Positions 40,601-63,577 are shown, counted from the first letter of the stretch. The stretch: DNA of 64,000 nucleotides from Escherichia coli (GCF_013315695.1 NZ_CP054353.1); one strand, 5' to 3'. Translations and numbers: made by a program. Notes: generated from the sequence alone by a model not told the origin.

Positions 40601-41431
40601 TTGAAATCATTATTCAATCGGTTAACGGGAAAAGCGGTTAGCCGGACAGCTTTCGTCGAACATCTTGGTCATGAAGTTGTACAACATCATCCAAACTGGA
40701 AAGTCATGATTTCGACTGACCATAAATTGATGCGCATTGATACGGGTCACCAAACGGTGGAAATCACTCTTGATGATGCCTACAAACGTTATCAAGCCGC
40801 ACCAGACCCGCTGGAAGAAGTGGCTGCAGATATGCTGAAACAGCTTGCAGAAATGCTGCCGACCGGGCGCTGTATTGTTCCGGTGATTAAAGAAAAAGCC
40901 TGGCTGGATACCGTTCGCCAACAGCTTAGCCAGTATGAATCTGATCCAGAGATCCTCAACGCCTCGCTGGATTTTGCCTGGGAAGACTTTAACGATGAGT
41001 TAATTATCTTGTTTGCTGAAGATGGTAGCGAAACCATGCGCTATCTGATGCGCTACGAAGTGACCATTGACCGCGAACAAGCCATCAATAATTTGAAGCA
41101 AATATTGCCGGAAGTTTCGGCTGAAATCGTTGATACAGGCGCAAACGCTGGAAAAGTTGCCGTTATCTCCGCAGGGGGTACTTATGAGCCCAGTCTGATG
41201 CTCATTGACGATCTTTGGGTGCAATCACCCGATCCTGAATGCGGCGACCTGTTAGTGACTGTTCCCTCCAGAGGAAAACTGTTTTTCACCTACAATGATC
41301 AGCCAGCAAATCTCAGCGCATTACGACAGTTAACAGAACAATGCTTCCGTGAGGATGACCATCCTCTGACAACACAGATATTCATCCGCCGTAACGGTCA
41401 CTTTTATCCCTGGGTAGAAACCTTGCATTAA
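40601..41431 (+). CDS. hypothetical protein, 276 aa (TTG start)
   Basis: Uninterrupted ORF with a plausible Shine-Dalgarno (AGAGAGGGAA) about 10 bp upstream; protein-like composition; no confident family assignment. Confidence 0.55.
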   Translation: MKSLFNRLTGKAVSRTAFVEHLGHEVVQHHPNWKVMISTDHKLMRIDTGHQTVEITLDDAYKRYQAAPDPLEEVAADMLKQLAEMLPTGRCIVPVIKEKAWLDTVRQQLSQYESDPEILNASLDFAWEDFNDELIILFAEDGSETMRYLMRYEVTIDREQAINNLKQILPEVSAEIVDTGANAGKVAVISAGGTYEPSLMLIDDLWVQSPDPECGDLLVTVPSRGKLFFTYNDQPANLSALRQLTEQCFREDDHPLTTQIFIRRNGHFYPWVETLH

Positions 41432-42296
41432 CGCAACCTCCGTCATGCTTGAAAAAGCTTGTCGGAGTATGTGATGAATGCTGCAAACTCACCGAAGCCG
41501 ATTTTGCCACCAAATCGGCTTTTTTATTGTCACGCGGCAAATTCTGAATGCATCACATAGCCGCACTGCCGCCTGACAAAACAGTTTACCTTCTGCAAAA
41601 TGGGGGGAATAATCTGATTTTATTTGATTACAAATTAACCACTTAAACCTATTTAATGCTGAGCATTGTCAGTCGGTTGATTTTGCGTGCTTTAGCATTC
41701 ACATCTATCCAGACGATGCAGTGAAAATTGGGTAATCCCCAGCAACCGCTGCGTAATGTCGTCTATCTTGTCGCGATCCTGGCATCCCTACATTATTTGT
41801 GGTCTGTGAAGATTATCTCATTGCAGCCCCTCATCTTCGCAGGGCTGGCTTTACAGCTTTTCACCTTACGTTATAAGAAGTTCCGTCGATGATGGCGCTA
41901 ATTTCGTGAATTGTGCGGCTTGTTGCAAATTACACGGTGTTGAAGGTTATTTACATGTTAGCTGTTGATTATCTTCCCTGATAAGACCAGTATTTAGCTG
42001 CCAATTGCTACGAAATCGTTATAATGTGCGACCTCGTCCTCCCTGACGCAGTTTTTGCGCTGCGGAAAAGGTGACATTGGCGCAACGAAGGTATATTTTG
42101 TTTTTTGCCGGAGGATAGCAGCAGATCGCTGCACAATGTCCGTCAAGTCTAACATTGACACTCTGGGGCAAAATAGACCGGCGTCCCGGCCTGCTGGAAT
42201 TTATCGCTATGCATACAGCTGTCGGGGCATACGCTTTACAGACGGCGGTGAAACGCCTGTCACAATCACACTAAACAAAGAGTACGGAACCCACTC

Positions 42297-42767
42297 ATGG
42301 ATATTCGTAAGATTAAAAAACTGATCGAGCTGGTTGAAGAATCAGGCATCTCCGAACTGGAAATTTCTGAAGGCGAAGAGTCAGTACGCATTAGCCGTGC
42401 AGCTCCTGCCGCAAGTTTCCCTGTGATGCAACAAGCTTACGCTGCACCAATGATGCAGCAGCCAGCTCAATCTAACGCAGCCGCTCCGGCGACCGTTCCT
42501 TCCATGGAAGCGCCAGCAGCAGCGGAAATCAGTGGTCACATCGTACGTTCCCCGATGGTTGGTACTTTCTACCGCACCCCAAGCCCGGACGCAAAAGCGT
42601 TCATCGAAGTGGGTCAGAAAGTCAACGTGGGCGATACCCTGTGCATCGTTGAAGCCATGAAAATGATGAACCAGATCGAAGCGGACAAATCCGGTACCGT
42701 GAAAGCAATTCTGGTCGAAAGTGGACAACCGGTAGAATTTGACGAGCCGCTGGTCGTCATCGAGTAA
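42297..42767 (+). CDS. accB: biotin carboxyl carrier protein of acetyl-CoA carboxylase
   Basis: 156-aa ORF with Ala/Pro-rich linker and biotinylation motif EAMKMMN. Confidence 0.97.
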
Positions 42768-42777
42768 CGAGGCGAAC

Positions 42778-44127
42778 ATGCTGGATAAAATTGTTATTGC
42801 CAACCGCGGCGAGATTGCATTGCGTATTCTTCGTGCCTGTAAAGAACTGGGCATCAAGACTGTCGCTGTGCACTCCAGCGCGGATCGCGATCTAAAACAC
42901 GTATTACTGGCAGATGAAACGGTCTGTATCGGCCCTGCTCCGTCAGTAAAAAGTTATCTGAACATCCCGGCAATCATCAGCGCCGCTGAAATCACCGGCG
43001 CAGTAGCAATCCATCCGGGCTACGGCTTCCTCTCCGAGAACGCCAACTTTGCCGAGCAGGTTGAACGCTCCGGCTTTATCTTCATCGGCCCGAAAGCAGA
43101 AACCATTCGCCTGATGGGCGACAAAGTATCCGCAATCGCGGCGATGAAAAAAGCGGGCGTTCCTTGCGTACCGGGTTCTGACGGCCCGCTGGGCGACGAT
43201 ATGGATAAAAACCGCGCCATTGCTAAACGCATTGGTTATCCGGTAATTATCAAAGCCTCCGGCGGCGGCGGCGGTCGCGGTATGCGCGTAGTGCGCGGCG
43301 ACGCTGAACTGGCACAATCCATCTCCATGACCCGTGCGGAAGCGAAAGCTGCTTTCAGCAACGATATGGTTTACATGGAGAAATACCTGGAAAATCCTCG
43401 CCACGTCGAGATTCAGGTACTGGCTGACGGTCAGGGCAACGCTATCTATCTGGCGGAACGTGACTGCTCCATGCAGCGCCGCCACCAGAAAGTGGTCGAA
43501 GAAGCACCAGCACCGGGCATTACCCCGGAACTGCGTCGCTACATCGGCGAACGTTGCGCTAAAGCATGTGTTGATATCGGCTATCGCGGTGCAGGTACTT
43601 TCGAGTTCCTGTTCGAAAATGGCGAGTTCTATTTCATCGAAATGAACACCCGTATTCAGGTAGAACACCCGGTTACTGAAATGATCACCGGCGTTGACCT
43701 GATCAAAGAACAGCTGCGTATCGCTGCCGGTCAACCGCTGTCGATCAAGCAAGAAGAAGTTCACGTTCGCGGCCATGCGGTAGAGTGCCGTATCAACGCC
43801 GAAGATCCGAACACCTTCCTGCCAAGCCCGGGCAAAATCACCCGTTTCCATGCACCTGGCGGTTTTGGCGTGCGTTGGGAGTCTCATATCTACGCGGGCT
43901 ACACTGTGCCGCCGTACTATGACTCAATGATCGGCAAACTGATTTGCTACGGTGAAAACCGTGACGTGGCGATTGCCCGCATGAAGAATGCGCTGCAGGA
44001 GCTGATCATCGACGGTATCAAAACCAACGTTGATCTGCAGATCCGCATCATGAATGACGAGAACTTCCAGCATGGTGGCACTAACATCCACTATCTGGAG
44101 AAAAAACTCGGTCTTCAGGAAAAATAA
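42778..44127 (+). CDS. accC: biotin carboxylase
   Basis: 449-aa ATP-grasp enzyme starting [16 protein letters not shown]; the track ORF extension overlaps accB and was rejected. Confidence 0.97.
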
Positions 44128-44174
44128 TTTGTGATGCGCGGTGTTTTCATCGCGCTTAGCAAAGAACGTAATCA

Positions 44175-44208
44175 ACGCCGGGCCTGTTAACGCTGCCCGG
44201 CGTTTTTA
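44175..44208. terminator. rho-independent terminator after accC (also downstream of the convergent islet operon)
   Basis: CGCCGGGC-loop-GCCCGGCG hairpin followed by T5. Confidence 0.7.
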
Positions 44209-44218
44209 TTGCCGTTAG

Positions 44219-45265
44219 CTAACGGTAGCTTGCAATTTCCGCTTTCAACGCGCTAATTTCAGCATCGCCATCAACAATTCCCAGCTCAAAGCAGTATGTC
44301 TTTGTTTCCCCTGGCTCTATAAAGGGCAGACGCCCCTGCGCTCGTTCTTTATCACGACCGTCAGGAAAACTATTGCTGACCTCCAGCCCCATAACATATT
44401 CACCCGCGCCTAAATTTTTCCAGTGGATAAAGTTGGGTAGCTGCATGGTGTCGAATTTCTCGTAAATTCCCCACCCCAGTTCGGCGTTCACCAGCGCAAC
44501 TTTACTCATCCCCTGACTGTCGCTATTCAACGTGAGATAGTAAACCTGCTCGTCAAAACCGGGCTGTGGGGTACAAATCTCCAGATGACTGGTTAACCCT
44601 TCCGCCGCATGCGGGGTTCGTGGCGTTACGCTTTTAGCCGACAGCAAGATTTCTGCCTGTGGCGATAATAAAGGCCAGCCGTAATTAAAGTGATAAAGAA
44701 TTTGCAGCGGCTGGCGGGTGAAACCATGATTAGTCACCTTGTCTTCAATGCGCAGCACATTTTCGCCATAACGGCAGCGAATGGTCCTTTCCAGCGTCAG
44801 ATTTTCACCGAACAATCGTGTTTCCCGTACTTTGCCATTGATGACAAATTCAATGCCGTCGTCGGTCCGTTCTGTGCGATACCCCACCTCTTCTGCTGGA
44901 GTCGCAGCCAAACGCCCGTGTAACCCCAGCGTTTCTCCGTTATCCTCACAGGGCGTGCCAATGTAGCTAAGTCCGCAGGTAGTCAGTAACCCCGCGTAGA
45001 AGCTACGTAAAAACCCGTTGCCCTGAGACTCAAAAAAAGCGGGGGCGACAATGCCGTTGGGGGTGATAAAAGAGAGCGCAGTATCCTTGTAGCTGGCCCA
45101 TGCAATATCCAGCGCGCGATCTTTTACCACCGTAAATGCCAGTCCCGCACCAGTACGGACATCAAACGCTTCTGTCCCCTTTGCTCTGCCACTACGTAAC
45201 TCATAGTGTTTAATTCCGGCAACCTGCGAGAGATCGCCAATCCACGACCAAATTTCGTTTTTCAT
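44219..45265 (-). CDS. mutarotase-like / DUF4432-like protein (islet)
   Basis: 348-aa ORF overlapping the upstream kinase stop by 4 bp; family assignment from memory only. Confidence 0.6.
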   Translation of the reverse strand: MKNEIWSWIGDLSQVAGIKHYELRSGRAKGTEAFDVRTGAGLAFTVVKDRALDIAWASYKDTALSFITPNGIVAPAFFESQGNGFLRSFYAGLLTTCGLSYIGTPCEDNGETLGLHGRLAATPAEEVGYRTERTDDGIEFVINGKVRETRLFGENLTLERTIRCRYGENVLRIEDKVTNHGFTRQPLQILYHFNYGWPLLSPQAEILLSAKSVTPRTPHAAEGLTSHLEICTPQPGFDEQVYYLTLNSDSQGMSKVALVNAELGWGIYEKFDTMQLPNFIHWKNLGAGEYVMGLEVSNSFPDGRDKERAQGRLPFIEPGETKTYCFELGIVDGDAEISALKAEIASYR

Positions 45266-46224
45266 TGTGCTGCTTCCCGAATGGACATGTCATGGCGCTG
45301 GATGAACGCTTCGATTTCCGCAAGGCGAGACGTTCCCTCCATTGGGCCACGTCGGGTTACCGCCAGTGCACCGCAGGCGTTGGCATATTGTAATGCCCGA
45401 TGGGCGTCAAACCCTAGCTGGCGGCAGGCAATCCACGCGCCACCAAAACAGTCTCCCGCACCGGTCGGGTCAACTTCTTCCACCGGATAGCTCTCAACAT
45501 GAAACTGCTCATTCGCGGAGTAGTAACTGGCACCTTGATTGCCGCGCTTCACAATCACCTCTTTAACACCTTCTTCAAGAAAACCAGCGATTGCACGCTC
45601 CGGTGTCGAGTGTGGCGACAAGAGCAACACTTCTCCCTCGCTGGGCATATAGATATCTGTTAACTCAAGAACAAAGTGGAGGGCGTCACGCATTTCTGGA
45701 ATATCGAGCATCTCTTTCCGAATATTAGGGTCAAAAGAAATAACGCCACCATTCTCTTTTACAATGGTTACCGCTTTCTTTACTGCGTCTACCATATGGA
45801 ATGAAAACAGGGATGAACCCATAATATGAAAATGGGTACAGTCCTTCAGAATATTTTCATCAACATGCTGCGCCGATAATTTACCGCAAGCGGCATTCTT
45901 GATATTAAAAATAAAATCGCGATCGCCAGAGTTATGATAAGTAACAAAGGCACTCCCGGTAGCTTCCAGAGGTAAGACTGAAATCCCCCTGATATCCACA
46001 CCGTCAGCAGCCAGACGATGTATATTAATATCACCAAAGCCATCATTCCCCACACAGCTAATGATGCCGCACGGAACGCCAAGACGTGTCACCTGGTCGA
46101 TAAAAATAGCGGGTGCGCCACTGGGATAAGGGCCGTTCCAGATACCTGGTTGATCAAATGGCTGGCCGATTTTACTCGCCATAATTTCAACCAGAATTTC
46201 TCCAATTGTGAAGACCTTACTCAT
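45262..46224 (-). CDS. PfkB-family sugar kinase (islet kinase 1)
   Basis: 320-aa ORF with ribokinase-superfamily motifs (GG..N.A, DPTGAGDCF anion-hole). Confidence 0.85.
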   Translation of the reverse strand: MSKVFTIGEILVEIMASKIGQPFDQPGIWNGPYPSGAPAIFIDQVTRLGVPCGIISCVGNDGFGDINIHRLAADGVDIRGISVLPLEATGSAFVTYHNSGDRDFIFNIKNAACGKLSAQHVDENILKDCTHFHIMGSSLFSFHMVDAVKKAVTIVKENGGVISFDPNIRKEMLDIPEMRDALHFVLELTDIYMPSEGEVLLLSPHSTPERAIAGFLEEGVKEVIVKRGNQGASYYSANEQFHVESYPVEEVDPTGAGDCFGGAWIACRQLGFDAHRALQYANACGALAVTRRGPMEGTSRLAEIEAFIQRHDMSIREAAQ

Positions 46225-46245
46225 ATGATTAATTCCTTGAAATGA

Positions 46246-47235
46246 TTAGCTGCGTTTTCTTTTATTTCTTACGTCAAAATAAACGGCTACAAGAATGACT
46301 AATCCTTTAACCACCATCTGATAGAAATAGGGAACGTTCATTAAGTTCATGCCATTATTAATAACGCCGATGGTTAATGCCCCGATTACCGTCCCCACCA
46401 CGGTTCCATAGCCGCCGTTCAGGCTGGTGCCTCCCAGTACAGCCGCAGCAATAGCATCCAGTTCGTAGCTCAACGCGGAATTCGGTTGCCCGGAATAGAG
46501 GCGTGAGGCGAGGATCATCCCGCTGATACCTGCCAGCACAGCTGTAATCATAAAGACTTTTATTTTCAAGCGGGTGACATTTATCCCTGAATAAACTGCC
46601 GCTTCTTTATTACCACCAGTGATATAAATCTTTCGTCCAAAGGTTGTTTTAGTAAGAATGAAATGGTTAATCAGCAATAAGATAATTAATATCCAGATTG
46701 GAATAGGTATATAGAGAAATTCTCCATTCCCCAGCGCCAGAAAGGCATCATCTTTAATCATGATGGGCATACCATCGGTCACTATATAAGCGATACCACG
46801 GAAGATCCCCATAGTAGCAACGGTGACAATAAACGACGGGATCCCCGCTATAGCCGTCAAGCCACCATTTATCATCCCCAGAGCCAGGGCTGCAATAATG
46901 GATAATGGGACCAATAAAATAAATGGAATTCCCCATGAAGCCCCAAGCGCAGCAAATGTGCCAATCAATGCAATGGTTGAACCAACCGATAAATCAATAT
47001 CGCCAAGCAAAAGTACGTAAGTCATTCCATAGGCGGTAATTGCAATTATCGAAACCTGAAGAATAATATTAGTAATGTTATTGGCGGTAAAAAAACTGTC
47101 ATTAATAAAACTGAACAGAATGATTAACACCACCATTCCACTGAGGATACCGCCATATTGCCTGAAGACTTTTTTAAAATTATTTGCAATGGGAATTTCC
47201 GAAGGTTTCGGACTGGCAAGAGTTTTCTCTGTCAT
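46246..47235 (-). CDS. sugar ABC transporter permease (RbsC/AraH-like)
   Basis: 329-aa polytopic membrane protein abutting the ATPase gene. Confidence 0.85.
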   Translation of the reverse strand: MTEKTLASPKPSEIPIANNFKKVFRQYGGILSGMVVLIILFSFINDSFFTANNITNIILQVSIIAITAYGMTYVLLLGDIDLSVGSTIALIGTFAALGASWGIPFILLVPLSIIAALALGMINGGLTAIAGIPSFIVTVATMGIFRGIAYIVTDGMPIMIKDDAFLALGNGEFLYIPIPIWILIILLLINHFILTKTTFGRKIYITGGNKEAAVYSGINVTRLKIKVFMITAVLAGISGMILASRLYSGQPNSALSYELDAIAAAVLGGTSLNGGYGTVVGTVIGALTIGVINNGMNLMNVPYFYQMVVKGLVILVAVYFDVRNKRKRS

Positions 47236-48735
47236 TTAACGTACTCCTGTTGCAGCGGTCATTACCTGTGTCTGCGTTAAATTTTCACATGAATAAATAT
47301 CGGCAATCGTTTTATTACGCATTACCACCAGACGATCGCTAAGTGCCATGACTTCTGGCAGTTCAGAGGACACCAGAATAATTGCTGTCCCTGCCGCAGC
47401 CAGTTGACGTATCACGTTATAGATTTCAAATTTTGCGCCGACATCCACTCCGCGCGTTGGCTCATCGAGCAATAAAATACGCGGAGTTTTCTCCAGCCAC
47501 TTCGATAACACGATTTTCTGTTGATTACCGCCGCTCAGTGCTCCCACTGCCTGATGTACAGAACTCACTTTAGTGTTCATTCTGGCAATTGATTGCAGCG
47601 TCTTCGCCTCTTCTTGTCGGTGATTGATAAGTCCTATCCGCGAAGCGTTATATTGAAACGCCACATGGTGCGTGTTCATATTGACGTCGTGCATCAGCAC
47701 TAACCCTTCTTCCTTGCGGTTTTCGGTCACAAAAGCAATGCCATGATCAATAGCCTGTTTGGGATTAGCGATCCTGACTTCCTTACCATCAATCAACACA
47801 GTCCCGTGATACGAAACGAGGCCAAATAGCGCCTTCATCACATCGGAACGCCCGGCCCCCACCAGGCCAAAAAATCCGAGGACTTCCCCCGGACGCACAG
47901 CGAAACTGACCTCTTTAAAAAGCGAAGGATGGGAAAGGTTTTTTACTTCCAGTTTTGCAGGAACATTTTCATCCGGCTTTTCCCCAAGACGTGCTGGCCA
48001 AATATTTTTCATTTCCCGACCAACCATTTGGGCAATCAAATGCTGGATATCACTGTTTTTCTTTTCATGCGTAGCGATATACTCACCGTCGCGGATCACC
48101 GAAATATCATCTGAAATCCGCATAATTTCATCCATGCGATGAGAGATATAAATAACCGCACAACCTCGCTGCTTTAATTTCTCAATAATGTTAAACAGAA
48201 TCTCTGCTTCATTATCACTTAGCGAAGATGTCGGTTCATCCATAATCACGACATCTGCTGCATAGCTTAAGGCTTTGGCAATTTCTACCAGTTGCCTATG
48301 TGCCATCGACATATTGCCGACCATTTCCAGCGGATCCAGTGGGATGCCCAGTTCCGCGAGGAGATTCTGGCAATCTGCGAGCATTTTTTTATCGTTAATA
48401 ATGCCAAAACGTCGCGGTTCATTATTGGCATAAATATTTTCCGCCACGGTCATATTATTACTCAGGCTCAGTTCCTGAAAAATAATCGCAATCCCTAACT
48501 GGCGAGAATGCTGCGGATTATTAATGGTGATGGTTTCACCACGTAGTGTTATCGTTCCCTGGGTTGGCGGATAAACACCGGCGAGTATTTTCATTAATGT
48601 CGATTTACCGGCACCATTCTCGCCTAATAAAGTATGCACCCGCCCTTTACGTAAAGAGAGGGTAATATCTTTTAATGCCTGAACATGACCAAATGTCTTC
48701 GCAATATGCGAAACATCAAGAATAACATCCGTCAT
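47236..48735 (-). CDS. sugar ABC transporter ATP-binding protein, duplicated-domain type (RbsA-like)
   Basis: 499-aa ORF with two ABC cassettes (Walker A GENGAGKST, signature LSGGNQQK). Confidence 0.88.
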   Translation of the reverse strand: MTDVILDVSHIAKTFGHVQALKDITLSLRKGRVHTLLGENGAGKSTLMKILAGVYPPTQGTITLRGETITINNPQHSRQLGIAIIFQELSLSNNMTVAENIYANNEPRRFGIINDKKMLADCQNLLAELGIPLDPLEMVGNMSMAHRQLVEIAKALSYAADVVIMDEPTSSLSDNEAEILFNIIEKLKQRGCAVIYISHRMDEIMRISDDISVIRDGEYIATHEKKNSDIQHLIAQMVGREMKNIWPARLGEKPDENVPAKLEVKNLSHPSLFKEVSFAVRPGEVLGFFGLVGAGRSDVMKALFGLVSYHGTVLIDGKEVRIANPKQAIDHGIAFVTENRKEEGLVLMHDVNMNTHHVAFQYNASRIGLINHRQEEAKTLQSIARMNTKVSSVHQAVGALSGGNQQKIVLSKWLEKTPRILLLDEPTRGVDVGAKFEIYNVIRQLAAAGTAIILVSSELPEVMALSDRLVVMRNKTIADIYSCENLTQTQVMTAATGVR

Positions 48736-48795
48736 AATGACCTCGGTGTCACAACAAAACGTCGATAACGTTTTGTTGTGAAATGAAGATGTTTA

Positions 48796-49686
48796 TCATT
48801 TACCTGTATAAACGCCGGGTTGTACCGGGATCATTTTTTCTACCGGTTTACCATTGAGGTGATCAACAGCGGCATCAATGGCTTTAGCACCCATTTGATC
48901 GGGATATTGCCGAATCACGGCCGCAAACGTTTTTTCACTGTCAACGGCATCACGCGCTTCTTTCATGCCGTCAAAACCAATGATTTTGATGTTGTCGTTA
49001 TGCGCAGATTTCGCTGCGATAACCGCTGCCAGCGCCGCATCATCACCAAAGCCAAACAGACCATTCAGGTTGGCATTTGCCTGCATAATGTTTTGCGCAG
49101 TCGTTAACGCTTCAGCCCGCGTAATACCAGGCTGTTCAGCAACAATTTTAATATCCGGTGTATCGCTTAACCCTTTCTTAAAACCATCAACGCGCGCAAC
49201 CACCGATTGTAATGCCGGATAAGAAATAATGGCTACAGTACCTTTACCATTCAAAAGTTTGCCCATTAACTTGCCTGCTTCAACGCCTCCCGCGTAGTTA
49301 TCGGTCGCAACATGCGATACGACCGGAACGCCTTCCGCAGCGACGTCGACGGTGATAACGGGAATACCGGCCTTATCGGCTTTAATTATCGCCGCCTGGA
49401 CGCCTTTCGAATCGACCGGAGAGATAATAATGGCATCCACTTTTTTAGTAATAAAATCCTCAACATCAGAAAGTTGTTTGTTTAAATCCTGATTGGCAAT
49501 AGAGACACTTAAATTGACATTGTCTTTTTTTGCCTCTTCTTTCATGGCATTCGCAAGATCAATATAGAAAGGATGTTGCTGTGTTAATAATGACGCACCA
49601 ATTTTATACTCTTTTGCCAACGAGCTTTGCGAGAACAATGCCAGGCTCACCAACATAGCTGAACCAAGTAATTTAATATTTTTCAT
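48796..49686 (-). CDS. periplasmic sugar-binding protein (RbsB-like)
   Basis: 296-aa ORF with signal peptide MKNIKLLGSAMLVSLALFSQSSLA. Confidence 0.85.
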   Translation of the reverse strand: MKNIKLLGSAMLVSLALFSQSSLAKEYKIGASLLTQQHPFYIDLANAMKEEAKKDNVNLSVSIANQDLNKQLSDVEDFITKKVDAIIISPVDSKGVQAAIIKADKAGIPVITVDVAAEGVPVVSHVATDNYAGGVEAGKLMGKLLNGKGTVAIISYPALQSVVARVDGFKKGLSDTPDIKIVAEQPGITRAEALTTAQNIMQANANLNGLFGFGDDAALAAVIAAKSAHNDNIKIIGFDGMKEARDAVDSEKTFAAVIRQYPDQMGAKAIDAAVDHLNGKPVEKMIPVQPGVYTGK

Positions 49687-49721
49687 AAATAATCCTCATT
49701 GTTTTTGTAGGGTACAACATC

Positions 49722-50603
<882 letters not shown>

Positions 50604-50917
50604 TTACAAAATGAAGAAAGAGAATCTTCACTTTCATTTTGAAAGCAAACTAGCACAGCAAAAGCGGCAAAAAGCGTGATGCATGTCGAATATCATCAAA
50701 ATAACTTACAAAAAATAACTTAATTTGTTTTTTACTTTGTAAGTGAAACCAATGACACCTCTGCATAAATATGAATATATTCATTTATTTTTCAATGTAT
50801 TAAGCTATTTTCGTTGCGATTTTTGACCCATGATTTTCTTTTCGAATTGTCGATATTATTGAAGGGTAACTTTCAAAGAAAAATACAAGGGGCTATAGTG
50901 TTACGCATTAAAGGCCA

Positions 50918-51748
50918 ATGAAGAGTGTTAACGTGCCGAGAAAATCGTCTAACCTACTGAAACGCAGATTAAAAATTGCAGAAATTGTTGCCGCCCAGGG
51001 TGAAATCAAAGTTGATGACTTATCTGCGCAACTTGGTGTCTCTAGCGTGACGATCCGCGGCGATCTCAGTTATCTGGAGCAACAGGGATATTTAAAGCGA
51101 TCATTTGGCGGTGCTATTGCGACACCACTCTCCTCTGAACCAGAAGCGATACAACCGATCGCGCCGTTGTCTCTGGCACAACAAATGGAAATAGCACGAC
51201 ATTGCGCACGGTTAATTCGGGATCGTGACACGCTATTTCTTGGACATGGGACAATCTGCCGTAAGATCATTCCCTTGCTCAGCGAAGTGAAAAAACTGCG
51301 TCTGATCACCAACGATCCCGAACATGCGCTGCTGGCAAATCAGTTTATTGATGGCGAAATAATACTGGCTGGCAGTGAAATGCTGCGCCCCGATACCGCA
51401 CTGGCCGGAAAACCTCTCGAACAGGCACTTCAGCATTTCACCATTACACATAGCATTCTGGAAATCAGCCATCTGGATGCTGATGGTACTTTAAATATCA
51501 ACGTTCCCAGACTTGCCGCTGCCTGGCAGCTCTGTTTCGATAATGCCCAGAATAAGACGGTTATCGTTGCCGCCGATCCTGCGCCATCAACGGCTGCTAT
51601 CGGGCATTTGCATCAAGCAGAAAATGTGATCGTCAGCCGCAGCATTAACGAACAATATCAGCAACAATTGCAGTCGGCTGATTTCGTTATCCTTTATACC
51701 AGTAATGAGTGCTTTACCTGGTCCAATCGCGAAAGGCTTCAGGAATGA
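50918..51748 (+). CDS. DeoR-family transcriptional regulator
   Basis: 276-aa ORF with N-terminal DeoR HTH (LSAQLGVSSVTIRGDL) and sugar-phosphate-binding C-domain; divergent from the aldolase-ABC operon. Confidence 0.8.
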   Translation: MKSVNVPRKSSNLLKRRLKIAEIVAAQGEIKVDDLSAQLGVSSVTIRGDLSYLEQQGYLKRSFGGAIATPLSSEPEAIQPIAPLSLAQQMEIARHCARLIRDRDTLFLGHGTICRKIIPLLSEVKKLRLITNDPEHALLANQFIDGEIILAGSEMLRPDTALAGKPLEQALQHFTITHSILEISHLDADGTLNINVPRLAAAWQLCFDNAQNKTVIVAADPAPSTAAIGHLHQAENVIVSRSINEQYQQQLQSADFVILYTSNECFTWSNRERLQE

Positions 51749-51758
51749 GAGGGGTTTT

Positions 51759-52715
51759 GTGACAATAACTATCTGCGCTATGGGCGAATTGCTGGCCGAG
51801 TTTTTGTCCCGCAACCCACATCAAAAATTCACTCAGCCTGGGGAGTTTATCGGGCCATTTCCCAGCGGTGCACCAGCAATTTTTGCTGCTCAGGTGGCAA
51901 AACTGTCCCATCGGGCCATCTTCTTCGGATGTGTTGGTAATGATGATTTTGGCCGACTCATTATAGAGCGTCTCCGTCATGAAGGTGTCATTACCGATGG
52001 GATTCACGTTATGAACAATGCCGTCACAGGTACGGCGTTCGTGAGTTATCAAAATCCCCAGCAGCGGGATTTCGTCTTTAATATCCCTAACAGCGCCTGC
52101 GGTTTGTTTACTGCCGAGCACATTGATAAGGATCTGCTTAAACAGTGTAACCATCTGCATATTGTGGGCTCATCGTTGTTCTCATTTCGCATGATCGATG
52201 TCATGCGTAAAGCAATAACGACGATCAAATCGGCTGGCGGAACCGTTTCTTTCGATCCCAATATTCGCAAAGAGATGCTGAGCATTCCTGAAATGGCGCA
52301 GGCCCTCGATTATTTGATTGAATATACGGATATTTTTATCCCCAGCGAAAGCGAACTCCCTTTCTTCGCGCGTCACAAAAATCTGTCAGAAGAACAGATT
52401 GTTAGCGATCTTCTCCACGGCGGCGTAAAACATGTGGCGATAAAACGCGCCCAGCGTGGGGCCAGCTATTACAAGCTTAAAAACGGTACATTACACGCCC
52501 AGCATGTTACAGGCCACGATATCGAAATTATCGATCCAACGGGTGCAGGCGACTGCTTTGGCGCAACGTTTATCACTCTTTTCTTATCCGGTTTCCCGGC
52601 ACACAAGGCGCTGCAATATGCAAATGCCAGCGGCGCGCTCGCCGTAATGCAGCAAGGTCCGATGGAAGGGATATCCTCACTGACTGACATTGAAGACTTT
52701 TTGCAGCAGCACTGA
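51759..52715 (+). CDS. PfkB-family sugar kinase (islet kinase 2, paralog of kinase 1)
   Basis: About 50% identical to kinase 1 over its full length; GTG start chosen after RBS GAGAGGGG and by alignment with the kinase 1 N-terminus. Confidence 0.8.
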   Translation: MTITICAMGELLAEFLSRNPHQKFTQPGEFIGPFPSGAPAIFAAQVAKLSHRAIFFGCVGNDDFGRLIIERLRHEGVITDGIHVMNNAVTGTAFVSYQNPQQRDFVFNIPNSACGLFTAEHIDKDLLKQCNHLHIVGSSLFSFRMIDVMRKAITTIKSAGGTVSFDPNIRKEMLSIPEMAQALDYLIEYTDIFIPSESELPFFARHKNLSEEQIVSDLLHGGVKHVAIKRAQRGASYYKLKNGTLHAQHVTGHDIEIIDPTGAGDCFGATFITLFLSGFPAHKALQYANASGALAVMQQGPMEGISSLTDIEDFLQQH

Positions 52716-52807
52716 ACGGCAATTTTCTGTCAGATTATTTTCCCTGCCTGAAGAGTTGCCGTAGAATTGCCCGTTTCTCGTATCCCCCCATGAGGAGGAC
52801 CCCTTCC

Positions 52808-53050
52808 GTGGACACTCGTTTTGTTCAGGCCCATAAAGAGGCGCGCTGGGCGCTGGGGCTGACCCTTTTGTATCTGGCGGTATGGTTAGTAGCCGCTTAC
52901 TTACCTGGCGTTACCCCCGGTTTTACCGGCTTTCCACGCTGGTTTGAGATGGCTTGCATCCTGACGCCGCTGCTGTTTATTGGACTGTGCTGGGCGATGG
53001 TGAAATTTATCTATCGCGATATCCCACTGGAGGATGACGATGCAGCTTGA
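52808..53050 (+). CDS. yhdT: small membrane protein YhdT (DUF997)
   Basis: 80-aa two-helix ORF with GTG start (VDTRFVQAH), overlapping the panF start. Confidence 0.85.
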   Translation: MDTRFVQAHKEARWALGLTLLYLAVWLVAAYLPGVTPGFTGFPRWFEMACILTPLLFIGLCWAMVKFIYRDIPLEDDDAA

Positions 53051-54491
53051 AGTAATTCTACCGCTGGTCGCCTATCTGGTGGTGGTGTTCGGTATCTCTG
53101 TTTATGCGATGCGTAAACGAAGCACTGGCACCTTCCTTAATGAGTATTTCCTCGGCAGCCGCTCTATGGGCGGTATTGTGCTGGCGATGACACTCACCGC
53201 GACCTATATCAGTGCCAGTTCGTTTATCGGCGGGCCTGGAGCTGCTTATAAATACGGCCTGGGCTGGGTATTGCTGGCGATGATTCAGCTTCCTGCAGTC
53301 TGGCTTTCGCTCGGTATTCTCGGCAAGAAGTTCGCAATTCTTGCGCGCCGCTACAATGCGGTGACGCTGAACGATATGCTGTTTGCCCGCTACCAGAGTC
53401 GTCTGCTGGTGTGGCTGGCGAGTTTAAGTTTGCTGGTTGCGTTCGTTGGTGCGATGACCGTGCAGTTTATCGGCGGTGCGCGCCTGCTGGAAACCGCGGC
53501 GGGTATCCCTTATGAAACAGGTTTGCTGATTTTTGGCATCAGCATTGCGCTCTACACCGCCTTTGGCGGCTTTCGCGCCAGCGTGCTGAACGACACCATG
53601 CAAGGGCTGGTGATGCTGATTGGCACCATTGTGCTGCTTATTGGCGTGGTCCATGCTGCTGGCGGCTTAAGCAATGCAGTAGAGACGCTGCAAACCATCG
53701 ATCCGCAACTGGTTACGCCACAAGGCGCTGACGATATTCTGTCACCTGCGTTTATGACGTCGTTCTGGGTGCTGGTGTGCTTTGGCGTTATAGGCCTGCC
53801 GCATACTGCGGTGCGCTGTATCTCTTATAAAGACAGCAAAGCAGTACATCGGGGGATCATCATCGGTACGATTGTAGTCGCAATCCTGATGTTCGGTATG
53901 CATCTGGCCGGAGCGTTAGGTCGGGCGGTGATCCCCGATCTCACCGTACCGGACCTGGTGATCCCGACGTTGATGGTAAAAGTACTGCCACCGTTTGCTG
54001 CCGGGATCTTCCTTGCAGCTCCTATGGCTGCGATCATGTCGACGATCAACGCCCAATTGCTGCAAAGTTCCGCTACGATCATTAAAGATCTCTATCTGAA
54101 TATCCGTCCGGATCAAATGCAAAACGAGACGCGCCTGAAGCGGATGTCGGCGGTGATTACGTTGATTCTCGGCGCGTTGCTGCTGCTTGCTGCATGGAAG
54201 CCGCCTGAAATGATCATCTGGCTGAATTTGCTGGCCTTCGGCGGGCTGGAAGCTGTCTTCCTGTGGCCGCTGGTACTGGGTCTTTACTGGGAACGCGCTA
54301 ACGCCAAAGGCGCGCTAAGTGCGATGATCGTTGGCGGCGTGCTGTATGCCGTACTTGCGACACTGAATATTCAGTACCTGGGCTTCCACCCTATCGTGCC
54401 CTCGTTGCTGCTAAGTTTGCTGGCTTTCCTGGTCGGAAACCGTTTCGGTACGTCCGTCCCGCAAGCTACCGTTTTGACTACTGATAAATAA
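53040..54491 (+). CDS. panF: sodium/pantothenate symporter
   Basis: 483-aa SSS-family transporter from MQLEVILPL. Confidence 0.95.
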
Positions 54492-54502
54492 AGAGTTTTG
54501 CC

Positions 54503-55384
54503 ATGCCTTGGATCCAACTGAAACTGAACACTACCGGCGCGAACGCGGAAGATCTTAGCGATGCGCTGATGGAAGCGGGTGCCGTTTCTATCACTTTTCA
54601 GGATACCCACGATACGCCAGTATTTGAGCCGCTGCCGGGCGAAACGCGCCTGTGGGGCGACACCGATGTGATTGGTCTGTTCGACGCTGAAACCGATATG
54701 AACGACGTGGTGGCGATTCTGGAAAACCATCCGCTGCTCGGCGCGGGCTTCGCGCATAAAATCGAACAACTGGAAGATAAAGACTGGGAGCGCGAATGGA
54801 TGGATAATTTCCACCCGATGCGCTTTGGTGAACGACTGTGGATCTGCCCAAGCTGGCGTGATGTGCCGGACGAAAACGCCGTCAACGTGATGTTAGACCC
54901 AGGGCTGGCGTTTGGTACGGGTACCCATCCAACTACCTCTCTGTGCCTGCAATGGCTCGACAGCCTCGATTTAACCGGTAAAACGGTCATCGACTTTGGC
55001 TGTGGTTCCGGCATTCTGGCTATCGCGGCGCTGAAGCTGGGTGCAGCAAAAGCCATTGGTATTGATATAGACCCGCAGGCGATTCAGGCCAGCCGCGACA
55101 ACGCCGAACGTAATGGCGTTTCTGACCGTCTGGAACTCTACCTACCTAAAGATCAGCCAGAAGAAATGAAAGCCGACGTGGTGGTCGCTAACATCCTTGC
55201 AGGCCCATTACGTGAACTGGCACCGTTAATCAGCGTCCTGCCGGTTTCAGGTGGCTTGCTGGGCCTTTCCGGTATTCTGGCAAGCCAGGCAGAGAGCGTT
55301 TGTGAAGCTTATGCCGACAGCTTCGCTCTGGACCCGGTCGTGGAAAAAGAAGAGTGGTGCCGCATTACCGGTCGTAAGAATTAA
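54503..55384 (+). CDS. prmA: ribosomal protein L11 methyltransferase
   Basis: 293-aa SAM-dependent methyltransferase ([13 protein letters not shown] motif). Confidence 0.95.
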
Positions 55385-55643
55385 CCTTCGCATCGCCGTA
55401 GGGTGACGCAAGGCGAAGTGCGAGCAAGGTCACAAAAGGCACGTTAATTTGCCCATTATTTACGCAAATTTGCGTGCCAAAATTTTCATTCATAAAGAAA
55501 AATTGAGAACTTACTCAAATTTCTTGGAGTGTAAATTTTAGTCACTATTTTCTAATATAATGATTTTTATGAGTAATTATCGCGCCAAGCTCATTTTAAA
55601 TGCAATTCTTTGATCCATCTCAGATGATTGGTCAAAGTTTGGC

Positions 55644-55690
55644 CTTTCATCTCGTGCAAAAAATGCGTAATATACGCCGCCTTGCAGTCA
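55644..55690 (+). promoter_or_regulatory. candidate dusB-fis promoter (-35 TTCATC, -10 TAATAT, GC-rich discriminator)
   Basis: Hexamers with 16-bp spacing and a GC-rich discriminator (ACGCCGCC) before dusB; consistent with the growth-rate-regulated fis promoter. Confidence 0.5.
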
Positions 55691-55712
55691 CAGTATGGTC
55701 ATTTCTTAACTC

Positions 55713-56678
55713 ATGCGCATCGGACAATATCAGCTCAGAAATCGCCTGATCGCAGCGCCCATGGCTGGCATTACAGACAGACCTTTTCGGACGTTGTGCT
55801 ACGAGATGGGAGCCGGATTGACAGTATCCGAGATGATGTCTTCTAACCCACAGGTTTGGGAAAGCGACAAATCTCGTTTACGGATGGTGCACATTGATGA
55901 ACCCGGTATTCGCACCGTGCAAATTGCTGGTAGCGATCCGAAAGAAATGGCAGATGCAGCACGTATTAACGTGGAAAGCGGTGCCCAGATTATTGATATC
56001 AATATGGGTTGCCCGGCTAAAAAAGTGAATCGCAAGCTCGCAGGTTCAGCCCTTTTGCAGTACCCGGATGTCGTTAAATCGATCCTAACCGAGGTCGTCA
56101 ATGCAGTGGACGTTCCTGTTACCCTGAAGATTCGCACTGGCTGGGCACCGGAACACCGTAACTGCGAAGAGATTGCCCAACTGGCTGAAGACTGTGGCAT
56201 TCAGGCTCTGACCATTCATGGCCGTACACGCGCCTGTTTGTTCAATGGAGAAGCTGAGTACGACAGTATTCGGGCAGTTAAGCAGAAAGTTTCCATTCCG
56301 GTTATCGCGAATGGCGACATTACTGACCCGCTTAAAGCCAGAGCTGTGCTCGACTATACAGGGGCCGATGCCCTGATGATAGGCCGCGCAGCTCAGGGAA
56401 GACCCTGGATCTTTCGGGAAATCCAGCATTATCTGGACACTGGGGAGTTGCTGCCCCCGCTGCCTTTGGCAGAGGTTAAGCGCTTGCTTTGCGCGCACGT
56501 TCGGGAACTGCATGACTTTTATGGTCCGGCAAAAGGGTACCGAATTGCACGTAAACACGTTTCCTGGTATCTCCAGGAACACGCTCCAAATGACCAGTTT
56601 CGGCGCACATTCAACGCCATTGAGGATGCCAGCGAACAGCTGGAGGCGTTGGAGGCATACTTCGAAAATTTTGCGTAA
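55713..56678 (+). CDS. dusB: tRNA-dihydrouridine synthase B
   Basis: 321-aa TIM-barrel flavoenzyme; co-operonic with fis. Confidence 0.95.
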
Positions 56679-56703
56679 ACAGAAATAAAGAGCTGACAGA
56701 ACT

Positions 56704-57000
56704 ATGTTCGAACAACGCGTAAATTCTGACGTACTGACCGTTTCTACCGTTAACTCTCAGGATCAGGTAACCCAAAAACCCCTGCGTGACTCGGTTAAAC
56801 AGGCACTGAAGAACTATTTTGCTCAACTGAACGGTCAGGATGTGAATGACCTCTATGAGCTGGTACTGGCTGAAGTAGAACAGCCCCTGTTGGACATGGT
56901 GATGCAATACACCCGTGGTAACCAGACCCGTGCTGCGCTGATGATGGGCATCAACCGTGGTACGCTGCGTAAAAAATTGAAAAAATACGGCATGAACTAA
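56704..57000 (+). CDS. fis: nucleoid-associated protein Fis
   Basis: 98-aa ORF with C-terminal HTH ([27 protein letters not shown]). Confidence 0.98.
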
Positions 57001-57024
57001 TTCAGGTTAGCTAAATGCTTGATT

Positions 57025-57061
57025 AAAAAGGCGCTACTCGGCATGGGGAAGCGCCTTTTTT
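57025..57061 (+). terminator. rho-independent terminator after fis
   Basis: AAAAAGGCGC-loop-GCGCCTTTTTT hairpin. Confidence 0.8.
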
Positions 57062-57085
57062 ATAGGTGTCACAAAGGGAGTGACC

Positions 57086-57970
57086 ATGAGAACAGGATGT
57101 GAACCGACCCGATTTGGTAATGAAGCAAAGACCATCATCCAAGGTGATGCATTAACCGAACTTAAAAAGATCCCCGCCGAAAGTGTAGATCTGATCTTTG
57201 CCGACCCACCGTATAACATCGGTAAAAATTTTGATGGTCTGATCGAAGCCTGGAAAGAAGATCTGTTTATCGACTGGCTGTTTGAAGTGATTGCAGAGTG
57301 CCACCGCGTTCTGAAAAAGCAGGGCAGCATGTACATCATGAACAGCACGGAAAACATGCCCTTTATCGATCTCCAGTGCCGCAAGCTTTTTACCATCAAA
57401 AGTCGCATCGTCTGGTCATATGACAGTTCTGGAGTGCAGGCGAAAAAACACTACGGCTCCATGTACGAACCCATCCTGATGATGGTGAAAGACGCAAAGA
57501 ACTACACGTTCAACGGTGATGCTATTCTGGTAGAAGCCAAAACCGGATCGCAGCGCGCGTTGATCGATTATCGCAAAAATCCTCCACAGCCTTACAATCA
57601 TCAAAAAGTACCGGGTAACGTCTGGGATTTTCCGCGCGTGCGTTATTTGATGGATGAATATGAGAATCACCCGACGCAAAAACCGGAAGCCTTACTGAAA
57701 CGCATTATTCTCGCCTCTTCCAACCCAGGCGATATCGTTCTCGACCCGTTTGCCGGTAGCTTTACTACCGGTGCCGTAGCCGCCGCCAGCGGGCGAAAAT
57801 TCATTGGTATTGAGATCAACAGCGAGTACATCAAAATGGGGCTTCGACGGCTGGATGTCGCGTCGCATTACTCTGCGGAAGAACTGGCGAAAGTGAAAAA
57901 AAGAAAGACCGGCAACCTGTCAAAACGAAGCCGGTTAAGCGAAGTTGACCCCGATCTCATTGCAAAGTAA
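57086..57970 (+). CDS. yhdJ: DNA adenine methyltransferase YhdJ
   Basis: 294-aa N6-MTase with DPPY motif and SAM-binding motif near the C-terminus. Confidence 0.92.
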   Translation: MRTGCEPTRFGNEAKTIIQGDALTELKKIPAESVDLIFADPPYNIGKNFDGLIEAWKEDLFIDWLFEVIAECHRVLKKQGSMYIMNSTENMPFIDLQCRKLFTIKSRIVWSYDSSGVQAKKHYGSMYEPILMMVKDAKNYTFNGDAILVEAKTGSQRALIDYRKNPPQPYNHQKVPGNVWDFPRVRYLMDEYENHPTQKPEALLKRIILASSNPGDIVLDPFAGSFTTGAVAAASGRKFIGIEINSEYIKMGLRRLDVASHYSAEELAKVKKRKTGNLSKRSRLSEVDPDLIAK

Positions 57971-58053
57971 AGGAAGTGTAAGCCTGGTTTTCAGATTATT
58001 CATTTCGTGTATATTTCCTGCCAGACTTGGTTAAACATGCACAGGCTCAGGTA

Positions 58054-58233
58054 ATGATTCGCAAGTATTGGTGGCTCGTCGTTTTCGCTGTCTTCGTTTT
58101 TCTGTTTGATACTTTACTGATGCAGTGGATTGAACTGCTGGCAACAGAAACAGACAAATGCCGCAATATGAACTCAGTTAATCCACTAAAACTGGTTAAC
58201 TGTGACGAACTGAATTTTCAGGACAGAATGTGA
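58054..58233 (+). CDS. yhdU: small membrane protein YhdU
   Basis: 59-aa ORF with one TM helix (MIRKYWWLVVFAVFVFLF). Confidence 0.7.
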   Translation: MIRKYWWLVVFAVFVFLFDTLLMQWIELLATETDKCRNMNSVNPLKLVNCDELNFQDRM

Positions 58234-58235
58234 AT

Positions 58236-58898
58236 TTATATGACACTTAATTCATTCGTTTGATGAATTAATTTCGTTATGTTTTCATCTGGCATGAACA
58301 TTCTTAATACGTTATCGACCAGTGCGGGTGCTTGTTTATAAAGATCATAACCCGCCATATTCATTAACCAGTTTTGAACAATTCCGCTGAAGGCACCATC
58401 AATAATAATCATCACAACATCTAAATCGAGATTATTTGCTATACAACCTTGTTGCTGACATGCCTGCAATACTTCGCGGAGAGTCTGCGGATTAAAGCCC
58501 ATCTTTTCGCGTATCACTCCCTCTGCCAGCATCTCATCATTAAATTCACATTTGTGATATAAGATTTTCAGCAACGCCTGCTGGCGGGGAATTTTGGCAA
58601 TATATTGCAAGCCAACAATCAATTTTTCACGCAATTGCTGAAACGGGTCATGCTCTAACCCAGCAGTCAAGTGATCCTGGATTAACTCCCGCAATGAAGG
58701 CTGTTGCAACCACATCTCATTAAACAGTTGGGTCTTGTTCTCGAAGTGCCAGTAGATAGCGCCACGCGTAACGTTAGCGGCGTCGGCAATGTCGTTGAGC
58801 GTCGTCTTGCTTACGCCATGCTGCGCAAACTGGGCGATGGCAGTTTCAATCAGTTCTTGCCGGGTCTTCAGAGCTTCGGCTTTGGTTCTTTTTGCCAT
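58236..58898 (-). CDS. acrS: TetR-family repressor AcrS (EnvR)
   Basis: 220-aa TetR-type regulator; divergent from acrE. Confidence 0.93.
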   Translation of the reverse strand: MAKRTKAEALKTRQELIETAIAQFAQHGVSKTTLNDIADAANVTRGAIYWHFENKTQLFNEMWLQQPSLRELIQDHLTAGLEHDPFQQLREKLIVGLQYIAKIPRQQALLKILYHKCEFNDEMLAEGVIREKMGFNPQTLREVLQACQQQGCIANNLDLDVVMIIIDGAFSGIVQNWLMNMAGYDLYKQAPALVDNVLRMFMPDENITKLIHQTNELSVI

Positions 58899-59296
58899 GA
58901 TTAATTATTCAGGAAATAAATATATTCGACACAGAGTGAGAAAATAGCGAAGGTTAATCTATCACCTAATGTGTATTTATACGAGAGGCTAATATTGAGT
59001 TGCTATAAATCGTTAAATAAATAATATATATTATTTACCTAAGATACATTCACTACATCAATATATATTTCAATTTACGAGGATTTGATTCTACCTCTTT
59101 CAACCCGCGTCAAAATAAAACAGTAGAATATTAATCTTTTTTTGTGTTTATGTGCCTTGAGACGCCAGTATTCATAACTATTCCTTACATCGACGAATGA
59201 TAATTTGTAGGATAGCGAACTGTATTTTTCTTTCTGCGAGTTAACGCGTTGCCTTTTTGGGTAAATAACGCGCTTTTGGTTTTTTGAGGAATAGTA

Positions 59297-63246: not shown

Positions 63247-63301
63247 GGTGATGCTGCCAACTTACTGATTTAGTGTATGATGGTGTTTTTGAGGTGCTCC
63301 A

Positions 63302-63577
63302 GTGGCTTCTGTTTCTATCAGCTGTCCCTCCTGTTCAGCTACTGACGGGGTGGTGCGTAACGGCAAAAGCACCGCCGGACATCAGCGCTATCTCTGCTCT
63401 CACTGCCGTAAAACATGGCAACTGCAGTTCACTTACACCGCTTCTCAACCCGGTACGCACCAGAAAATCATTGATATGGCCATGAATGGCGTTGGATGCC
63501 GGGCAACAGCCCGCATTATGGGCGTTGGCCTCAACACGATTTTACGTCACTTAAAAAACTCAGGCCGCAGTCGGTAA
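63302..63577 (+). CDS. insA: IS1 InsA
   Basis: Protein identical to the insA of the first copy. Confidence 0.9.

Follow-up and report, generated by a model that had tools for sequence, protein, structure and literature searches.

The D-tagatose utilisation system of Escherichia coli has been described from strain Nissle 1917, in which an 8.5-kb region of eight genes lies between accC and yhdT, with 341 bp between its two divergent clusters (Ha et al. 2022, PMC9720028). The locus is found in 93% of B2 genomes (PMC9720028), and the names of its two clusters, tagYABCDE and tagRK, come from Park et al. 2025 (PMC12226905). As summarised in PMC9720028, a D-tagatose/galactitol locus of the phosphotransferase system (PTS) type, gatY-tagKTH-gatZABCD, occurs in Klebsiella oxytoca and Salmonella (Shakeri-Garakani et al. 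2004), and a tagatose pathway of the ATP-binding cassette (ABC) type is present in Sinorhizobium meliloti and Agrobacterium tumefaciens (Kohlmeier et al. 2019; Wichelecki et al. 2015); the tagatose pathway of PMC9177967 is a different one. In this study, we analysed a window of 64,000 nucleotides from an E. coli genome (GCF_013315695.1, NZ_CP054353.1), to which all positions given below refer. The eight-gene sugar-utilisation region in this window is almost certainly the published tag locus, with the tagYABCDE and tagRK clusters diverging at the accC/yhdT site and with the published pathway as its mechanism.

Identity and genomic site of the locus

All eight genes appeared as intact open reading frames (ORFs) in the ORF listing and translation; six are encoded by the minus strand and the other two by the plus strand. 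The gene set, the gene order, the strands, the accC-yhdT site and the 341-bp divergent intergenic region all match those of the published locus. Over positions 41600-60000, the window is collinear with the Nissle 1917 genome at 97.9% nucleotide identity with zero gaps, and the eight proteins bear 97-99.7% identity to their Nissle 1917 counterparts (HW372_RS02435-02470), each with 1 to 10 residue changes. Strain MSB1_4I is 100% identical to the window over positions 44200-53000, and RefSeq places its locus between accC and yhdT. The cluster is not a chance arrangement, as megablast against 5426 complete E. coli genomes detected 80% or more of the 8.8-kb stretch in 1419 of them.

The K-12 genome does not carry the locus. 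Judged from blastn and the junction sequences, homology to K-12 ends at the accC stop codon (44127) and returns at 52809, which is position two of the yhdT start codon. The GC content within the insert is 0.42-0.46, as against about 0.51-0.55 in the flanks. The start codon of yhdT is GTG in this strain (52808) and ATG in K-12, as a consequence of the insert reaching the first base of this codon.

The initial annotation of the region, made from the sequence alone, had proposed an ABC-transporter-fed ketose bisphosphate pathway comprising two PfkB-family kinases, a GatY-like aldolase and a binding-protein-dependent ABC importer, and every one of these components is present as an intact ORF. Its observation that GatZ/KbaZ and PTS components were missing holds across the whole window: tblastn searches with K. 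oxytoca proteins (E <= 1e-3) detected no homologs of GatZ/KbaZ, PTS enzyme II (EII), EIIA-HPr, GatA or 1-phosphofructokinase (1-PFK)-type kinases in the 64 kb, and no gene for a cognate GatZ/KbaZ subunit stands beside tagY. D-tagatose, the first of the candidate substrates it had listed, is the substrate of the published locus. The unit it had delimited (45262-52715) is too small, leaving out the sixth operon gene tagE (44219-45265), and the DeoR-family regulator tagR was not discussed. The combination of genes, regarded there as outside the textbook, has been in the literature since 2022, and its regulation since 2025; the sugar pathway is thus already known, and the present analysis adds no new biology to it. 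What novelty remains is confined to comparative points, namely the kinase clade to which TagK belongs, the pairing of this kinase with the regulator, the operator shared among loci, the tagK start codon and the relation of tagE to GatZ, and to the roles proposed for TagK and TagE.

The catabolic pathway and its control

We assigned the gene products to families by NCBIfam and Pfam profile searches with curated cut-offs and by sequence matches to the PDB. TagY exceeded the cut-offs of both TIGR01858 (476.5 bits; cut-off 443.55) and the GatY-subfamily model NF009374 (528.9 bits; cut-off 383), and its residues 1-283 align full-length with AgaY (PDB 1GVF, E = 5.6e-104). TagABC shows the make-up of a CUT2 importer, that is, a binding protein, a fused double-ABC ATPase and an RbsC/AraH-type permease, and the PDB relatives agree. 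The best NCBIfam matches were RbsB for TagA (160.4 bits, with ribose- and allose-binding proteins as PDB relatives), XylG, AraG and RbsA for TagB (511-554 bits), and AraH (281.9 bits) and RbsC (279.8 bits) for TagC. No known specificity was assigned to TagABC, because all of these matches lie under the equivalog cut-offs. For TagD, the best model was NF049991, 'tagatose kinase', and the protein is nearly identical to PDB 3IQ0/3K9E (E = 1.7e-217), structural-genomics entries titled "putative ribokinase II". TagR matched 11 DeoR-family NCBIfam models over residues ~14-258, with AgaR scoring best (107.4 bits) and all under the equivalog cut-offs. Residues differing from Nissle 1917 number 5 of 284 in TagY, 1 of 296 in TagA, 3 of 499 in TagB, 2 of 329 in TagC, 3 of 320 in TagD, 10 of 348 in TagE and 4 of 276 in TagR. 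The tagE and tagD genes overlap by 4 nt.

Based on these families and on the genetics published for Nissle 1917, TagABC, a ribose-type ABC importer, would bring in free D-tagatose, and TagD would phosphorylate it, giving tagatose-6-phosphate. PfkA, the housekeeping 6-phosphofructokinase whose gene lies elsewhere in the genome, would add the 1-phosphate to yield tagatose-1,6-bisphosphate, which TagY is predicted to cleave into dihydroxyacetone phosphate and glyceraldehyde-3-phosphate. In Nissle 1917, deletion of the six genes, or of the kinase gene ECOLIN_RS18675 (tagD) alone, left neither growth on tagatose nor its consumption, and the six genes carried on a plasmid, without tagK, enabled K-12, B and W strains to grow on tagatose (PMC9720028). 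Growth conferred by the plasmid was lost upon pfkA deletion and kept upon pfkB deletion (PMC9720028). For a ~98%-identical locus, it has therefore been shown genetically that tagYABCDE is necessary and sufficient and that tagD and pfkA are necessary, and the transcription starts and the repression by TagR have been established as well (PMC9720028, PMC12226905). The initial annotation had outlined import, two phosphorylations and aldol cleavage. This outline agrees with the published pathway (PMC9720028), except that the second phosphorylation is ascribed to PfkA and not to a kinase of the cluster.

Several points weigh against the published pathway as the mechanism in the strain analysed here. 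The kinase and aldolase reactions rest on genetics and homology and not on in vitro assays, a limitation stated by the authors themselves (PMC9720028). All hosts tested carry gatZ and/or kbaZ, and GatZ is encoded within the cluster in two related species, so that the independence of TagY from GatZ is presumed. The exact products of the kinases are predicted ones. The source strain of the window is not Nissle 1917, from which it diverges by about 2%, and the tagatose phenotype comes only from Nissle 1917 and plasmid-bearing laboratory strains. On NF049991, TagD reached 413.9 bits, just short of the curated 420-bit cut-off; its function is supported by the genetics of the 99%-identical Nissle 1917 protein (PMC9720028). 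As tagK was absent from both the host and the plasmid of the pfkA experiment, TagK may formally still contribute to the second step in native strains. The ligand of TagR is likewise putative, as are the roles of TagE and TagK proposed below.

The regulatory elements published for the locus were all recovered at the expected spacing in the 341-bp region between tagR and tagY (50577-50917), and the operator search had an expectation of zero chance matches. The two operators, tagO1 and tagO2, form an imperfect inverted repeat over the transcription start of the tag operon. Both transcription starts, one per operon, were reported by Park et al., who also predicted Ptag, Preg, the CRP site and the two operators (PMC12226905). 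Park et al. gave evidence that TagR is a tagatose-responsive repressor; the repression was seen in assays where plasmid-borne tagR abolished expression from a tagR-tagY intergenic reporter, with no tagR deletion behind this result (PMC12226905). D-tagatose induces the six-gene cluster from >40-fold to >1000-fold and tagK only about 2-fold (PMC9720028), and the tag operon undergoes catabolite repression in the published, ~98%-identical locus. Produced from its own weakly regulated promoter, TagR would block Ptag at the two operators over the transcription start and be released when tagatose is present, and the CRP site would provide the catabolite control of Ptag.

The locus lets E. coli of the B2 phylogroup grow on D-tagatose, a low-calorie sweetener. 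Many extraintestinal pathogens belong to this group, as do the probiotic Nissle 1917 and adherent-invasive strains, and the locus is therefore relevant to the effects of diet on the microbiota. The tag locus is already in use as a tagatose-inducible expression system. The positions of the genes, the regulatory elements and the insert are summarised in Table 1.

Table 1. Genes, regulatory elements and boundaries of the tag locus in the 64-kb window
Feature	Position	Strand	Description
Strain-variable insert (tag locus)	44128-52807		Takes the place of the 109-bp intergenic region between accC and yhdT in K-12
tagE	44219-45265	-	348 aa; DUF4432 / aldose-1-epimerase family (PF14486); last operon gene
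tagD	45262-46224	-	320 aa; PfkB-family kinase, predicted D-tagatose kinase making tagatose-6-phosphate (homology and Nissle 1917 genetics)
tagC	46246-47235	-	329 aa; ABC permease, CUT2, RbsC/AraH-like
tagB	47236-48735	-	499 aa; fused double ABC ATPase, CUT2
tagA	48796-49686	-	296 aa; periplasmic sugar-binding protein, ribose-binding-protein-like
tagY	49722-50576	-	284 aa; class II tagatose-1,6-bisphosphate aldolase, GatY-like; first operon gene
tagO2	50603-50621	+	TagR operator; published sequence, exact match, found once
tagO1	50627-50645	-	TagR operator; published sequence, one mismatch, found once
Ptag	50647-50690	-	Promoter; -10 TAGTTT 50652-50647, -35 TTTTTG 50673-50668, start ~50640; read against published elements
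CRP site of Ptag	50690-50675	-	Predicted; pattern TTCGA-N6-TCACG, found once
Preg	50872-50899	+	Promoter of tagRK; -35 TTCAAA, 16-nt spacer, -10 TATAGT, start ~50907; promoter scan, identical to published Preg
tagR	50918-51748	+	276 aa; DeoR/GlpR-family repressor of the tag operon
tagK	51705/51780-52715	+	336 or 311 aa; second PfkB-family kinase, co-transcribed with tagR; conserved start at 51759

TagK, its partner regulator and TagE

The function of tagK was left unexplored by Ha et al. and Park et al. (PMC9720028, PMC12226905), and our literature search, which included follow-up work on tagK and Nissle 1917 and the Salmonella STM325x genes, turned up no study on the function of either TagK-clade kinases or DUF4432. 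To place TagK among its relatives, we used TagK as the query for a scan of GTDB representatives, one genome for each species, and mapped the eight tag genes as well as the Klebsiella PTS and GatZ genes onto the 72 loci obtained. TagD and TagK are 51% identical over 311 residues (E = 8e-116). In the neighbour-joining tree of all kinases, they fall into two old clades, designated here D and K. Clade D unites TagD with ABC-linked kinases of Enterobacterales, Burkholderiaceae and other proteobacteria and represents the characterised tagatose-kinase type. Clade K, which contains TagK, is confined to Enterobacterales and Orbales, and every gene of this clade lies directly 3' of a DeoR regulator gene, in ABC-type and PTS-type loci alike. 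The idea of TagK being a recent duplicate of TagD was ruled out by this tree, in which TagK and the Klebsiella-type regulator-linked kinases form an old clade of their own. Nor is tagK a decaying gene: its ratio of nonsynonymous to synonymous substitution rates (dN/dS) against a divergent Escherichia lineage was 0.045 at dS 0.46, close to that of tagD (0.036), which indicates purifying selection on tagK; yet one lineage, represented by Enterobacter sp. BIGb0383, has kept the cluster at accC/yhdT with both tagK and tagE absent.

The TagK of E. coli is not the ortholog of the classical TagK of K. oxytoca, as the latter is a 1-PFK-type kinase encoded beside the PTS genes. The name tagK therefore collides between two kinase genes of the K. 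oxytoca locus (L069, 7029-7943 versus 9977-10927), in which the E. coli-type homolog is unnamed and lies after the DeoR regulator gene, across gatY.

The annotated start of E. coli tagK also deserves correction. RefSeq starts the gene at ATG 51780, and the same codon is ATC, ATA or CTG in other genera. A conserved start lies seven codons upstream, at GTG 51759 in the window, preceded by the Shine-Dalgarno sequence GAGAGGGG; in the cross-species alignment of 5' ends, this upstream codon is GTG in the Escherichia, Enterobacter, Superficieibacter, Trabulsiella and Klebsiella spallanzanii loci. The RefSeq start is thus probably seven codons too short.

The pair of a DeoR regulator and a clade-K kinase is found divergent from PTS-type tagatose loci too, in Klebsiella oxytoca, K. 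pneumoniae, K. grimontii, Kluyvera, Lelliottia, Buttiauxella, Citrobacter, Izhakiella, Tatumella and Zophobihabitans. These loci contain genes for a GatY-like aldolase, a 1-PFK-type tagatose-1-phosphate kinase, a fructose-type EIIBC and EIIA-HPr, usually together with gatZ and gatA. The E. coli operator 15-mer CTTTCAAAATGAAAG, searched with up to two mismatches, gave 49 matches inside the 450-bp stretches that lie upstream of the regulator gene in 16 PTS-type loci, against a single match in the remaining ~317 kb, and the operator motif is common to the ABC-type and PTS-type loci. Because both the pairing and the operator are common to the two types, the aldolase, the operator, the regulator and the clade-K kinase form a shared core, around which the module for uptake and first phosphorylation has been exchanged.

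What TagK does in the locus has to be judged from its motifs, its conservation and the published genetics. The two cluster kinases might act in series, TagD giving the 6-phosphate and TagK the 1,6-bisphosphate, which would make the locus self-sufficient for the bisphosphate; two PfkB paralogs beside a bisphosphate aldolase suggest such a scheme, and the published test of pfkA dependence employed a plasmid without tagK (PMC9720028). Nevertheless, we consider this very improbable. The six genes without tagK suffice in K-12, B and W, where PfkA is then essential, and tagatose induction of tagK is merely about 2-fold (PMC9720028). Clades D and K have 98 invariant columns in common, including every recognisable substrate or catalytic motif, and their 5 fixed differences are all hydrophobic; TagK accordingly has all the motifs of the free-sugar-kinase clade and no clade-specific basic residues. 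On the phosphosugar-kinase subfamily model TIGR03168 (LacC/FruK/Pfk-2; cut-off 216.4 bits), TagK and TagD both stay below the cut-off (51.3 and 46 bits), whereas the Klebsiella (K. oxytoca) tagatose-1-phosphate kinase scores 323.6 bits. Formation of a ketose 1,6-bisphosphate calls for an enzyme of this subfamily's kind. In addition, Enterobacter sp. BIGb0383 retains the cluster without tagK. The initial annotation had also considered that the two kinases act on different substrates; the active-site motifs of TagD and TagK are essentially identical. On account of the motifs, the TIGR03168 score, the selection and the loss in BIGb0383, we favour TagK acting on the same free ketose as TagD. Thus, judged from its sequence, TagK is probably not the second-step kinase but a member of a distinct conserved clade, which would act on that ketose at a low constitutive level.

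If so, TagK may serve at a low level for backup or salvage, phosphorylating free tagatose or a closely related ketohexose (such as psicose, sorbose or fructose), with no regulatory role and a merely historical linkage to tagR. We regard this as a real possibility, albeit one that falls somewhat short of an even chance. Its active-site motifs are the same as those of TagD, and the tagatose-kinase model NF049991 is its best NCBIfam match at 342.5 bits, a score clearly under the 420-bit cut-off. Expression of tagK is low and barely regulated, and the gene is dispensable for plasmid-borne growth on tagatose (PMC9720028) and was lost in one lineage. On the other hand, a strict regulator-kinase pairing maintained across two uptake systems, together with strong purifying selection, exceeds what mere redundancy would account for. 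An alternative that takes up this pairing, which we put forward only tentatively and hold to be rather unlikely, is that the constitutive TagK converts traces of free tagatose into tagatose-6-phosphate and that this product, instead of tagatose, releases TagR, much as in the lsrRK pair compared below. The clade always follows a TagR-type regulator, even in PTS-type loci, whose catabolism has no place for a free-sugar kinase; the operator motif is common to both locus types, and tagK is under strong purifying selection. The characterised effectors of DeoR-family regulators are mostly sugar phosphates, which we count in favour of an inducer-forming TagK. The nearly constitutive promoter belonging to tagRK itself (PMC9720028, PMC12226905) fits such a role, and Park et al. 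left the effector molecule bound by TagR undefined (PMC12226905). Against an inducer-forming TagK, a tagD deletion that retained tagK showed no measurable consumption of tagatose, so that the flux through TagK is at best very small (PMC9720028), and one lineage has lost tagK. Tagatose-1,6-bisphosphate could also serve as the common effector without any TagK. It is tempting to speculate that tagR, tagK and the operator constitute a portable tagatose-sensing module across PTS-type and ABC-type loci, with TagK as the inducer-forming kinase and its product tagatose-6-phosphate, in place of free tagatose, as the actual ligand of TagR, a view we likewise rate as possible and not as probable.

A corollary of such a portable sensing module is that TagE and GatZ would be alternative occupants of the last operon position. 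ABC-type clusters lie at the same accC/yhdT site, with variation, in Enterobacter spp., Superficieibacter, Trabulsiella, Klebsiella spallanzanii and Serratia sp. H1w (L005-L012, L039), a distribution that suggests either an early acquisition with later losses or transfer that took place repeatedly through homology of the flanks. In Serratia sp. H1w and Budvicia, the position of tagE in the ABC-type cluster is occupied by a GatZ homolog, 68% identical to K. oxytoca GatZ, and in Trabulsiella neither a tagE nor a GatZ gene is found there; in the Budvicia locus (L045), no accC/yhdT flank was seen. If TagE and GatZ indeed alternate, the question arises whether TagY needs GatZ in trans.

TagE matches PF14486 (DUF4432) over model positions 2-303 of 304 (E = 3.3e-104) and is related to PDB 3TY1 (E = 3e-32). 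Residues H116, R118, H192, N194 and E295 are invariant across 31 homologs, and we take the His/His/Glu set among them to resemble the catalytic pattern of the GalM mutarotase. Free tagatose is mostly in the pyranose form, with O6 within the ring. An enzyme converting ring or anomeric forms and feeding a 6-kinase is a reasonable inference for this reason: TagE, a putative sugar mutarotase or ring-form converter, would interconvert the forms of free tagatose and thereby make the 6-OH available to the kinase. In Firmicutes, Bacteroidota and other bacteria (L076-L079, metagenomic and genome contigs), DUF4432 homologs that share 44-56% identity with TagE are encoded next to genes for a mannitol dehydrogenase and a PfkB kinase; for an FGGY kinase, a class II aldolase and a fucose-isomerase-like protein; or for a CUT2 ABC transporter, a short-chain dehydrogenase/reductase and a lactonase. 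The contexts of these distant homologs are varied sugar-catabolic loci, several adjoining transporters or kinases, and gave no specific clue to the substrate. They suggest that the DUF4432 family may have a general role on free sugars.

Apart from the tag locus, two features in the rest of the window were noted. acrF (60466-63999) appears truncated, with a 935-aa ORF ending at 63273 and the next ORF beginning at 63496; in MSB1_4I, acrF is annotated as a pseudogene without its C-terminus, with an IS1A element adjoining. Between acuI and accB lies an intact 276-aa ORF (40601-41431), of which the K-12 pseudogene yrdF corresponds to the first 143 nt. The segment 40744-41599, comprising the remainder of this ORF, is absent from both K-12 and Nissle 1917, and the similarity of the ORF to DUF1444 is weak and non-significant.

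Comparison with described systems

In the autoinducer-2 (lsr) system of E. coli, lsrRK is co-transcribed and divergent from lsrACDBFG, which encodes a CUT2 importer and processing enzymes, and the product of the kinase is the inducer. The likeness of the tag locus to this system is one of architecture only, in that a repressor and a kinase are divergent from a CUT2 operon. The proteins come from unrelated families, as LsrK is an FGGY kinase and LsrR a SorC-type regulator, the substrate is another one, and the tag locus has in addition a second kinase encoded in the operon.

Like the tag locus, the S. meliloti and A. tumefaciens pathway combines a CUT2 ABC importer with a clade-D tagatose kinase, and the order of the genes agrees; the kinases of the Burkholderiaceae and alphaproteobacterial loci that we retrieved are 54-62% identical to TagD. 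As far as that pathway is summarised in PMC9720028, it differs from the tag system in that a GatZ-family enzyme (~50% identical to K. oxytoca GatZ) is encoded directly behind the kinase and epimerises tagatose-6-phosphate to fructose-6-phosphate. Its loci are devoid of a bisphosphate aldolase, a DUF4432 gene and a TagK-clade kinase.

The PTS-type locus resembles the tag locus in the last step, where a GatY-type aldolase sharing 69-72% identity with TagY splits tagatose-1,6-bisphosphate. Genes for a DeoR regulator and a kinase of the TagK clade (57-61% identical to TagK) also lie divergent from the aldolase gene in Klebsiella, Kluyvera, Lelliottia, Buttiauxella and Citrobacter, and the operator motif is that of the tag locus. 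In contrast to the tag system, the sugar enters through a fructose-type PTS as tagatose-1-phosphate, the second kinase is of the 1-PFK/FruK type (the original 'TagK') and GatZ is encoded, whereas the ABC transporter, TagD and the DUF4432 gene are absent. Compared with the tag locus of Nissle 1917 and other B2 strains, the locus in the window represents the same system, the differences being allelic only (~2% of the nucleotides, a single mismatch in tagO1 and 1-10 amino acids per protein).

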